Shown in pieces: positions 9,387-10,585 of a stretch of DNA of 54,189 bases; the stretch's first letter is position 1, and every line of letters starts with the position of its first letter. This stretch comes from Escherichia coli (lineage in GTDB: Bacteria; Pseudomonadota; Gammaproteobacteria; Enterobacterales; Enterobacteriaceae). The stretch is taken from NCBI RefSeq assembly GCF_003334335.1, contig NZ_QOWQ01000032.1; one strand, 5' to 3'. The notes beneath the pieces are model-generated. The model had not been told where the DNA came from and searched no databases. It was given only the letters and a program-made list of their open reading frames with translations. A program made the translations under genes and the position numbers.

Positions 9387-9905
9387 ATGTCCATCCGTTT
9401 TGCCCGCAAAGCCGACTGTGCTGCCATTGCGGAAATTTATAACCACGCCGTGTTGTATACGGCGGCTATCTGGAATGACCAAACGGTGGATGCTGATAAC
9501 CGCATTGCCTGGTTTGAAGCGCGGACTTTAGCAGGTTATCCAGTGCTGGTGAGCGAGGAAAACGGCGTAGTGACGGGATATGTCTCGTTTGGCGACTGGC
9601 GTAGTTTCGATGGTTTTCGCCATACCGTGGAACATTCGGTTTATGTCCATCCCGATCATCAGGGCAAAGGTCTGGGGCGTAAATTGTTAAGCCGATTGAT
9701 TGATGAAGCGCGGGATTGCGGGAAGCATGTCATGGTCGCCGGGATCGAATCGCAAAATCAGGCCTCGCTGCATCTCCACCAGTCGCTGGGATTTGTCGTC
9801 ACCGCGCAAATGCCGCAGGTAGGCACTAAATTTGGTCGTTGGCTGGATCTGACATTTATGCAGTTGCAACTCGACGAGCGCACTGAACCGGACGCGATTG
9901 GATGA
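9387..9905 (+). CDS. mnaT: GNAT-family L-amino acid N-acyltransferase
   Basis: Track ORF 9153-9905 is over-extended. ATG at 9387 gives MSIRFARKAD... of 172 aa matching MnaT (YncA). Acetyl-CoA binding motif QGKGLGRKLL. Confidence 0.85.
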   Translation: MSIRFARKADCAAIAEIYNHAVLYTAAIWNDQTVDADNRIAWFEARTLAGYPVLVSEENGVVTGYVSFGDWRSFDGFRHTVEHSVYVHPDHQGKGLGRKLLSRLIDEARDCGKHVMVAGIESQNQASLHLHQSLGFVVTAQMPQVGTKFGRWLDLTFMQLQLDERTEPDAIG

Positions 9906-10351
9906 ATCAGTCGCTCACCCTTGCTTTTTTGATTGCCGCCGGAATTGGTCTGGTTGTCCAGAACACGCTGATGGTGCGCATCACCCAGACCTCCTCTACC
10001 ATTCTCATCGCCATGTTGCTGAACTCACTGGTGGGGATTGTGCTCTTTGTTTCTATTTTATGGTTTAAACAAGGCATGGCGGGGTTTGGCGAACTGGTGT
10101 CCAGCGTGCGCTGGTGGACACTTATACCTGGCTTGCTGGGATCGTTTTTTGTCTTCGCCAGTATCAGCGGATATCAGAATGTGGGAGCGGCGACAACTAT
10201 TGCTGTACTGGTCGCCAGTCAGCTGATTGGCGGTCTGATGCTGGATATCTTCCGCAGTCATGGCGTACCACTACGGGCGTTGTTCGGCCCAATTTGTGGC
10301 GCAATTTTACTTGTGGTTGGCGCCTGGTTGGTAGCCAGACGCTCATTTTAA
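9902..10351 (+). CDS. ydcZ: inner-membrane protein, DUF606/DMT-like
   Basis: 149-aa hydrophobic ORF whose ATG overlaps the mnaT stop (ATGA overlap at 9902-9905). Matches K-12 YdcZ length. Confidence 0.8.
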   Translation: MNQSLTLAFLIAAGIGLVVQNTLMVRITQTSSTILIAMLLNSLVGIVLFVSILWFKQGMAGFGELVSSVRWWTLIPGLLGSFFVFASISGYQNVGAATTIAVLVASQLIGGLMLDIFRSHGVPLRALFGPICGAILLVVGAWLVARRSF

Positions 10352-10585
10352 TCAGAGGATGGTGCCGCCTTTGGTTAACTGTTCGTGGCGCGCTTCCATA
10401 TCTTCTTTATGCTTGCGACCGTGATGGGCGATCGCTGTGCGCAGACGTTGCTGCTGGGTGTAGCGATCTTCCCGACTTAACTCCGCGTCATCGCTCAGGG
10501 CGATTAATAATTCGTTCATATGGGCAATGACGCTCTCTTCAATCGCGGCATCCACGCGCGCGATGACTTCATCCAGATGCGACAT
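10352..10585 (-). CDS. ydcY: small uncharacterised protein (DUF2526)
   Basis: 77-aa ORF matching K-12 YdcY length. Its stop codon (10352-10354) directly abuts the ydcZ stop (10349-10351). Confidence 0.75.
   Translation of the reverse strand: MSHLDEVIARVDAAIEESVIAHMNELLIALSDDAELSREDRYTQQQRLRTAIAHHGRKHKEDMEARHEQLTKGGTIL

Follow-up and report, generated by a model that had tools for sequence, protein, structure and literature searches.

Convergent ydcZ and ydcY genes of Escherichia coli without intergenic DNA, and a putative ydcY mRNA 3'-end stem-loop written in ydcZ codons

The tightly packed genes around ydcZ were analysed in a DNA stretch of 54,189 nucleotides (nt) from Escherichia coli (contig NZ_QOWQ01000032.1 of RefSeq assembly GCF_003334335.1), which is referred to here as the window. 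The segment under study comprised window positions 9387-10585, for which the open reading frames and the sequence were read directly. It carries the mnaT-ydcZ pair and, on the opposite strand and converging on it, the gene ydcY (Table 1). The window is 99.9% identical to chromosomes of the K-12 type, and its orientation is reversed with respect to MG1655. Together with curA and ortT the three genes form a block of the core genome (curA / mnaT-ydcZ / ydcY / ortT), and the locus was carried by 5416 of 5426 complete E. coli genomes. The products MnaT, YdcZ and YdcY were all full-length according to Pfam. In one RefSeq record the mnaT product is named 'L-methionine sulfoximine/L-methionine sulfone acetyltransferase'.

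Both borders of ydcZ lack intergenic DNA. The initial annotation of this DNA had described the mnaT stop codon as overlapping the ydcZ start codon in an ATGA, and the ydcZ and ydcY stop codons as adjacent on opposite strands with nothing between them. Both descriptions agree with the sequence and with the RefSeq annotation, the latter junction having 0 bases between the two stops. The same geometry (4-nt overlap, 0-nt gap) was found in RefSeq for a K-12-like record and for a strain of 96.6% identity. The convergent junction had been written as 'ttaa/tca' at 10349-10354; these coordinates are right, while 'ttaa' is one letter too long, since t10348 is the final base of a Phe codon and not part of the ydcZ stop.

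The end of the ydcY transcript was taken from the 3'-end mapping (Term-seq) of Adams et al. 2021 (PMC7815308), so that the experiment which the initial annotation had proposed as a check was already available in print. Supplementary file 1 of that study lists a dominant 3' end at MG1655 1517918(+), which is classed as 'primary (ydcY), antisense (ydcZ)'. This end appears three times in the three-tab file, one tab per growth condition, and the Term-seq scores given for it include 17670 and 1884. Its position in the window was obtained from the printed 61-mers, calibrated on the 3' end upstream of ortT (-32 from the ortT start), with base 51 as the 3' end. The ydcY end is located 37 nt beyond the ydcY stop, within the ydcZ coding sequence, and 3 nt beyond the extended stem of a stem-loop. 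Since a complete ydcZ mRNA must reach 10351 and the ydcY end is at 10315, the mature ydcY mRNA and any complete ydcZ mRNA overlap by at least 37 nt. The earlier statement that the convergent transcripts must overlap was thereby borne out for the ydcY direction, in which Term-seq placed the end inside ydcZ with antisense overlap. An end of the mnaT-ydcZ transcript is not contained in the accessible tables: between MG1655 1516900 and 1518099, the yncL end at 1517039 is the sole entry that the tables of Adams et al. have for this strand, among 3' ends and Rho regions alike. A search for a conserved hairpin that would protect the mnaT-ydcZ mRNA past its stop, inside ydcY antisense, found none; on the plus strand, the sole strongly conserved structure is the palindrome of the stem-loop mentioned above, which ends just before the ydcZ stop. 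The supplements of Yan 2018 do not mention mnaT, ydcZ or ydcY.

Supplementary file 2 of Adams et al. 2021 contains a Rho termination peak at MG1655 1518196(+), which corresponds to window position ~10037, antisense to ydcZ and ~315 nt downstream of the ydcY stop. These data were generated by DirectRNA-seq with and without bicyclomycin and evaluated in 800-nt windows; the column order was confirmed by recomputing the score. Reads upstream and downstream of the region amounted to 164/9 in untreated cells and 213/185 in the presence of bicyclomycin, resulting in a Rho score of 15.8 (p=2e-25; PMC7815308). The minus-strand RNA has a C:G ratio of 1.3-2.9 at 100-320 nt past the ydcY stop, with the peak value of 2.9 at 260-320 nt. 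A consensus scan of both strands for intrinsic terminators detected none at the ydcZ/ydcY junction; the nearest was a weak site inside ydcZ at 10127-10140. The stem-loop in front of the ydcY end is followed by CAACCACAAG and the end region by CACAAGUAAAA; no U-tract is present past the stem-loop, which therefore does not have the form of an intrinsic terminator. A search of the whole window at the Rfam gathering threshold matched only the sok antitoxin RNA (36016-36167, hokB region) and RydC (36727-36790), both far from the junction. The view that no terminator exists between the two genes thus holds for an intergenic or intrinsic terminator, but not for the locus as a whole, where a strong Rho-dependent region is located in ydcZ antisense and a stem-loop lies 5' of the mapped end. 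ydcY has the properties of the Rho-dependent class, namely read-through raised by bicyclomycin, a precise end past a stem without U-tract, and rut-like C-rich RNA downstream.

Table 1. Coordinates of features at the mnaT-ydcZ/ydcY locus (window positions)
Feature	Position	Strand	Basis
mnaT (yncA/mddA), GNAT N-acetyltransferase, first gene of the operon; stop TGA 9903-9905	9387..9905	+	open reading frame, RefSeq annotation, Pfam PF00583 (E=4.9e-21)
ATGA overlap, ydcZ ATG 9902-9904 over mnaT TGA 9903-9905	9902..9905	+	sequence
ydcZ, DMT-family inner-membrane protein, 149 amino acids; start ATG 9902-9904, stop TAA 10349-10351	9902..10351	+	open reading frame, annotation, Pfam PF04657 DMT_YdcZ (E=9.5e-24)
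C-rich, G-poor stretch around the Rho peak, antisense to ydcZ, C:G 1.8-2.9	10032..10131	-	composition
Steady-state ydcY mRNA 3' end (MG1655 1517918 +)	10315	-	Adams et al. 2021; position calibrated, sequence checked
Predicted ydcY 3' untranslated region stem-loop, core GCGUCUGG / CCAGGCGC (10342-10335 paired with 10327-10320)	10318..10345	-	RNA fold
Abutting convergent stops, ydcZ TAA and ydcY TGA (as tca at 10352-10354), 0-nt spacer	10349..10354		sequence, annotation
ydcY, DUF2526 protein, 77 amino acids, function unknown	10352..10585	-	open reading frame, Pfam PF10735 (1-77 of 77, E=1.2e-46)
ydcY promoter candidate, sigma-70-like, TTGACG / 16-nt spacer / TATCAT	10628..10655	-	consensus scan, 10/12 matches; prediction

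With a probability of roughly 0.7, we take the locus to be an mnaT-ydcZ operon with coupled translation that converges on the single gene ydcY, the transcript of which would be terminated by Rho antisense to ydcZ and trimmed back to a hairpin in coding sequence. Since ydcZ and ydcY abut directly, the ydcY mRNA has its end signals within ydcZ, on the opposite strand. RNA polymerase moving past ydcY would enter ydcZ in antisense orientation, Rho would load on the untranslated C-rich RNA, and transcription would be halted within a few hundred nt, as indicated by the published bicyclomycin data. The tail would then probably be trimmed by 3' exonucleases to the stem-loop of the last ydcZ codons, which would leave the precise end 37 nt past the ydcY stop and a mature ydcY mRNA complementary to the final 37 nt of any complete ydcZ mRNA. 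Trimming is put forward here by analogy with a model proposed for Rho-dependent mRNAs in general by Dar and Sorek 2018 (PMC6061677), in which they are terminated diffusely downstream and subsequently trimmed by PNPase and RNase II to a protective stem-loop; repetitive extragenic palindromic (REP) elements act as the protective structure in 24% of the cases (PMC6061677). The ydcY end resembles the ends of that study in its bicyclomycin-sensitive read-through, its precise position 3 nt past a stable stem, its lack of a U-tract and the excess of C over G downstream. It differs from them in that ydcZ, the convergent gene, harbours the stem-loop and the rut-like region within its codons, whereas those of that study are intergenic.

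The same palindrome at the end of ydcZ could also be regarded as a shared Rho-independent bidirectional terminator at which converging polymerases pause and collide, head-on or trailing, so that both mRNAs end flanking one stem. Elements of this type (Ju et al. 2019; preprint of Wang et al. 2022, 10.1101/2022.10.23.513370) are reportedly used by hundreds of E. coli genes, and the ydcZ/ydcY junction has in common with them, as far as those accounts go, the convergent gene pair, the near-palindromic junction hairpin and the sharp adjoining 3' end. The near-palindrome is located exactly at the junction, and in most species either strand of it folds (-14 to -24 kcal/mol on the plus strand), and the ydcY end follows sharply, 3 nt beyond the stem. 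However, the bidirectional class is described in these sources as Rho-independent, whereas read-through of ydcY is strongly sensitive to bicyclomycin, and of the two 3' ends expected on either side of the hairpin, the tables give that of ydcY but none for the mnaT-ydcZ strand. An end right past the plus-strand stem would lie no farther downstream than the ydcZ stop and leave a non-stop mRNA. Dense polymerase traffic in both directions would also be required, while mnaT-ydcZ has no listed signal in the tables. A shared bidirectional terminator is thus considered quite improbable.

Conservation was analysed in 80 Enterobacteriaceae loci, which were collected with YdcZ as query and one genome per species (L004-L083); amino-acid identity of YdcZ was 81-99%. 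In 53 of the 75 species with adjacent ydcY, the ydcZ/ydcY gap was -4, 0, 1, 2, 3, 4, 5 or 8 nt. Conservation across species thus applies to the tightness of the junction and not to a gap of precisely 0 nt. Four Enterobacter spp. (L029, L031, L032 and L042, ~3447-3450) show the classic minimal overlap of convergent genes, in that the two stops interleave over 4 nt; the shared letters are CTAG in L031 and TTAA in the other three. Junctions of other species were opened. The gap of the Citrobacter freundii group measures 36-87 nt and is occupied by REP-like palindromic units, that of Kosakonia cowanii measures 44 nt and provides ydcY with a canonical terminator made of a hairpin and U7, and a 38-nt gap with a stem-loop of 11 base pairs was found in L070. 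The record of L070 is titled Chryseobacterium sp. 18061, but the mnaT-ydcZ-ydcY block in it is enterobacterial (YdcZ identity 84%). L009, a metagenome-assembled genome titled uncultured Raoultella, has a 66-nt spacer with one base different from that of Citrobacter braakii L010. Both titles look like mislabelling or contamination.

The predicted stem-loop spans the ydcZ codons for G-A-W-L-V-A-R-R, and its pairing requires the codons GGC, GCC, AGA and CGC. In K-12 the hairpin has a folding energy of -14.3 kcal/mol, compared to -7.1 +/- 3.2 kcal/mol after synonymous resampling of the ydcZ tail (p=0.012). The first Arg codon of the tail is AGA or AGG in 54 of the 80 species, whereas AGR codons make up 9.8% at the remaining Arg positions of ydcZ. 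The minus-strand hairpin had a median of -18.3 kcal/mol in 53 tight junctions versus -7.9 kcal/mol in 25 loci with an opened junction or non-adjacent ydcY (Mann-Whitney p=6e-6), and paired cells in the hairpin alignment amounted to 87% in the tight set versus 67% in the opened set. As the Citrobacter freundii complex represents a single clade, the comparison was redone as independent contrasts on a neighbour-joining tree. Nine independent opened clades were compared with their nearest tight relatives: the hairpin was weaker in seven of them, equal in one and slightly stronger in one (sign test p=0.035, Wilcoxon p=0.008). The coding hairpin of Kosakonia cowanii is weaker than those of the other Kosakonia loci.

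The hairpin is thus likely to have a role in the formation of the ydcY 3' end, as judged from these comparisons, and the codons GGC, GCC, AGA and CGC appear to be under synonymous-site constraint, since they encode the hairpin on the opposite strand. A more specific proposal is put forward tentatively and at slightly less than even odds: the last ~8 sense codons of ydcZ would hold two messages, the YdcZ C-terminus and the ydcY 3'-end stem-loop, and synonymous sites including the rare AGA would be selected for the latter. The coding hairpin tends to decay in lineages that acquired a REP-like element or a dedicated terminator between the genes, or in which ydcY no longer adjoins; under the proposal, such an insertion would have relieved the constraint.

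Several points weigh against the preferred account of Rho termination, trimming and coupled translation. Exonuclease trimming at ydcY is an assumption, and the 800-nt windows of the Rho experiment locate the termination site coarsely. The K-12 hairpin taken alone is modestly unusual in comparison with dinucleotide shuffles (z=-1.76). The covariation score was 0.067 versus 0.066 for shuffles, and covariation was found in neither the tight nor the opened set; the outermost pair alone changes on both sides. The covariation test has low power, as the amino-acid code fixes one partner in most pairs. Support for the hairpin is thus synonymous-site conservation only, to which codon bias contributes, GGC, GCC and CGC being common codons. 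The Citrobacter freundii group keeps the AGA codon despite drift at the positions with which it would pair, the junctions of Enterobacter and Salmonella are tight yet their minus-strand hairpins are weaker, and the Citrobacter amalonaticus group and L082 retain the hairpin at an opened junction. For mnaT/ydcZ, the literature search yielded no ribosome-profiling, reporter or other direct measurement of coupling.

Some of these observations would be expected if the tight junction and the hairpin had no function at all. The spacer would then have been removed by deletion bias, the stem would result incidentally from GAWLVARR being encoded by GC-rich codons that are common, and a stall in decay would account for the Term-seq end. 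This fits the lack of hairpin covariation, the drift of the ydcZ/ydcY spacing from -4 to +8 nt between species, the weaker hairpins at the tight junctions kept in Enterobacter and Salmonella, and the frequency with which such junctions arise in E. coli, where 6 of 30 sampled convergent pairs were <=8 nt apart. A functionless hairpin is nevertheless rather unlikely, as it leaves unexplained the strong over-representation of the rare codon AGA at a pairing position, a stem stronger than its synonymous resamples (p=0.012), the preferential decay of the hairpin in independent lineages with an acquired REP-like element or terminator or with a non-adjacent ydcY, and a ydcY 3' end that is dominant and reproducible over three tabs.

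The overlap of the transcripts could itself be regulatory. Transcription of ydcY into ydcZ, or the complementary 37-nt 3' untranslated region, would in that case lower mnaT-ydcZ expression, and vice versa, either through transcriptional interference or because RNase III cleaves the duplex. Steady-state transcripts overlap in antisense by at least 37 nt and nascent RNA by ~300 nt, ydcY transcripts continue across ydcZ and mnaT when Rho is inhibited (213/185 reads), and the tight ydcZ/ydcY arrangement is conserved. Against this stand the normal limitation of the antisense RNA by Rho and the repeated opening of the junction during evolution. Moreover, 99 E. coli Term-seq 3' ends are classed both 'primary' and 'antisense' by Adams et al. 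2021 (PMC7815308), so that membership of this class calls for no special role of the overlap. A regulatory function is therefore held to be very improbable.

The mnaT/ydcZ overlap was kept in all 80 loci, as -4 nt (ATGA) in 65 and as -1 nt (TGATG/TAATG) in 15 of them, and thereby belongs to the class of same-strand pairs that share stop and start at -4 or -1 nt. According to Huber et al. 2023 (PMC10666635), the same-strand distances that occur most often in E. coli, by a wide margin, are -4 and -1 nt, 820 pairs are spaced between -8 and +10 nt, and such overlaps were found by experiment to couple translation in other gene pairs. The predicted pairing with the anti-Shine-Dalgarno sequence 5' of ydcZ is -3.2 kcal/mol (median -3.3 and strongest -6.6 kcal/mol in the 80 loci), compared to -5.6 kcal/mol for mnaT and -9.1 kcal/mol for ydcY. 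Ribosomes that terminate mnaT at the TGA of the ATGA would thus most likely restart on the overlapping ATG and translate ydcZ by termination-reinitiation. The absence of an own ribosome-binding site of ydcZ, together with the overlap kept in 80/80 loci, fits the prediction of such coupling. Coupling of mnaT and ydcZ is a plausible inference from the sequences and is strengthened by the conserved overlap and the weak ydcZ Shine-Dalgarno pairing. The pair corresponds to the -4/-1 pairs studied earlier (Huber et al. 2019, 2023; PMC10666635) in its same-strand ATGA, in the conservation of the overlap class across 80 species and in a downstream gene without Shine-Dalgarno sequence. It stands apart from heteromeric complexes, the class enriched in such overlaps (PMC10666635), as MnaT, a cytoplasmic acetyltransferase, and YdcZ, a DMT-family membrane protein, form no known complex of this kind.

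The genes for the MnaT acetyltransferase and the YdcZ membrane protein are linked by stop and start in all 80 species (window 9387-10351). This hints that the uncharacterised YdcZ may transport a substrate or product of MnaT.

The frequency of such junctions was estimated from the window plus two arbitrary 50-kb blocks of K-12, which together contained 30 convergent pairs of coding sequences. The gaps of these pairs were -23, -9, -4, 0, 2 and 3 nt, followed by values from 34 to 239 nt; the gap was <=0 in 4/30 and <=8 nt in 6/30. The pair rimL (-, 28756..29295) / ydcK (+, 27784..28764) overlaps by 9 nt (28756-28764) and is thus tighter than ydcZ/ydcY, and yncP (-, 36289..36357) overlaps the hokB toxin gene (+, 36162..36311) tail-to-tail by 23 nt. 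Further convergent pairs without spacer are yfeH/ypeB (4-nt overlap), ypdC/ptsP (2-nt gap) and yadE/panD (3-nt gap). Like ydcZ/ydcY, these five pairs of convergent coding sequences leave no room for an intergenic terminator. Other same-strand overlaps in the window are tehA/tehB (ATGA, 26668-26671) and ynbA/ynbB (1 nt, at 50007). Neither junction of ydcZ is unusual; both belong to common, well-described classes.

For ydcY, a single predicted sigma-D promoter is drawn in PMC4344625, where YdcY was demonstrated as a produced protein and was found to form no operon with ortT. ydcY as an antitoxin or as a member of an ortT-ydcY operon is ruled out by the same study. In E. coli SK6988 (NZ_CP167126.1, 1628-3479; L002), an IS3-family insertion and a deletion have removed mnaT and the 5' part of ydcZ, and ydcY carries an internal stop; hence both convergent partners are pseudogenes in this strain.

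Two further published 3' ends are located near the segment. An 'orphan' end at 10876 (window ~10866-10926, minus strand), 32 nt ahead of the ortT start, is preceded by the hairpin ACGCATATTTGCGCGCGT and then a T-run. It scores 3.18 as an intrinsic terminator and 0.52 for Rho, and the terminator scan flagged the same palindrome on the opposite strand. This suggests an ortT leader with an attenuator-like terminator. The yncL hairpin GTACTGTCAGAG...CTCTGACAGTAC is followed by a very abundant Term-seq end at 11194 (window 11144-11204, plus strand; scores 75265 and 536300). This end is located 37 nt from the stop of the convergent patD (11231) and is classed by Adams et al. as 'antisense patD' only.

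In itself the arrangement matters little, as it is present in every E. coli annotation and both the ydcY end and its Rho region had already been published as supplementary data. Coupling at ATGA and Rho-dependent ends with a protective stem-loop are likewise textbook matter or amply published. What is new, in a small way, is that the hairpin in the coding sequence of ydcZ and the REP-like elements or terminators inserted between the genes appear to trade off against each other. The conserved link between mnaT and ydcZ, if it reflects coupling, provides a functional lead for the uncharacterised membrane protein YdcZ. The locus would further serve as a clean natural example of a convergent gene whose 3'-end hairpin lies within the codons of its neighbour, which is relevant to the reading of synonymous constraint. 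If this were general, spacer-less convergent pairs, perhaps 10-20% of the convergent pairs of E. coli, would hide an mRNA-stabilising structure of the neighbour in their own codons. Such structures would constrain synonymous sites and put codon optimisation and genome recoding at risk.

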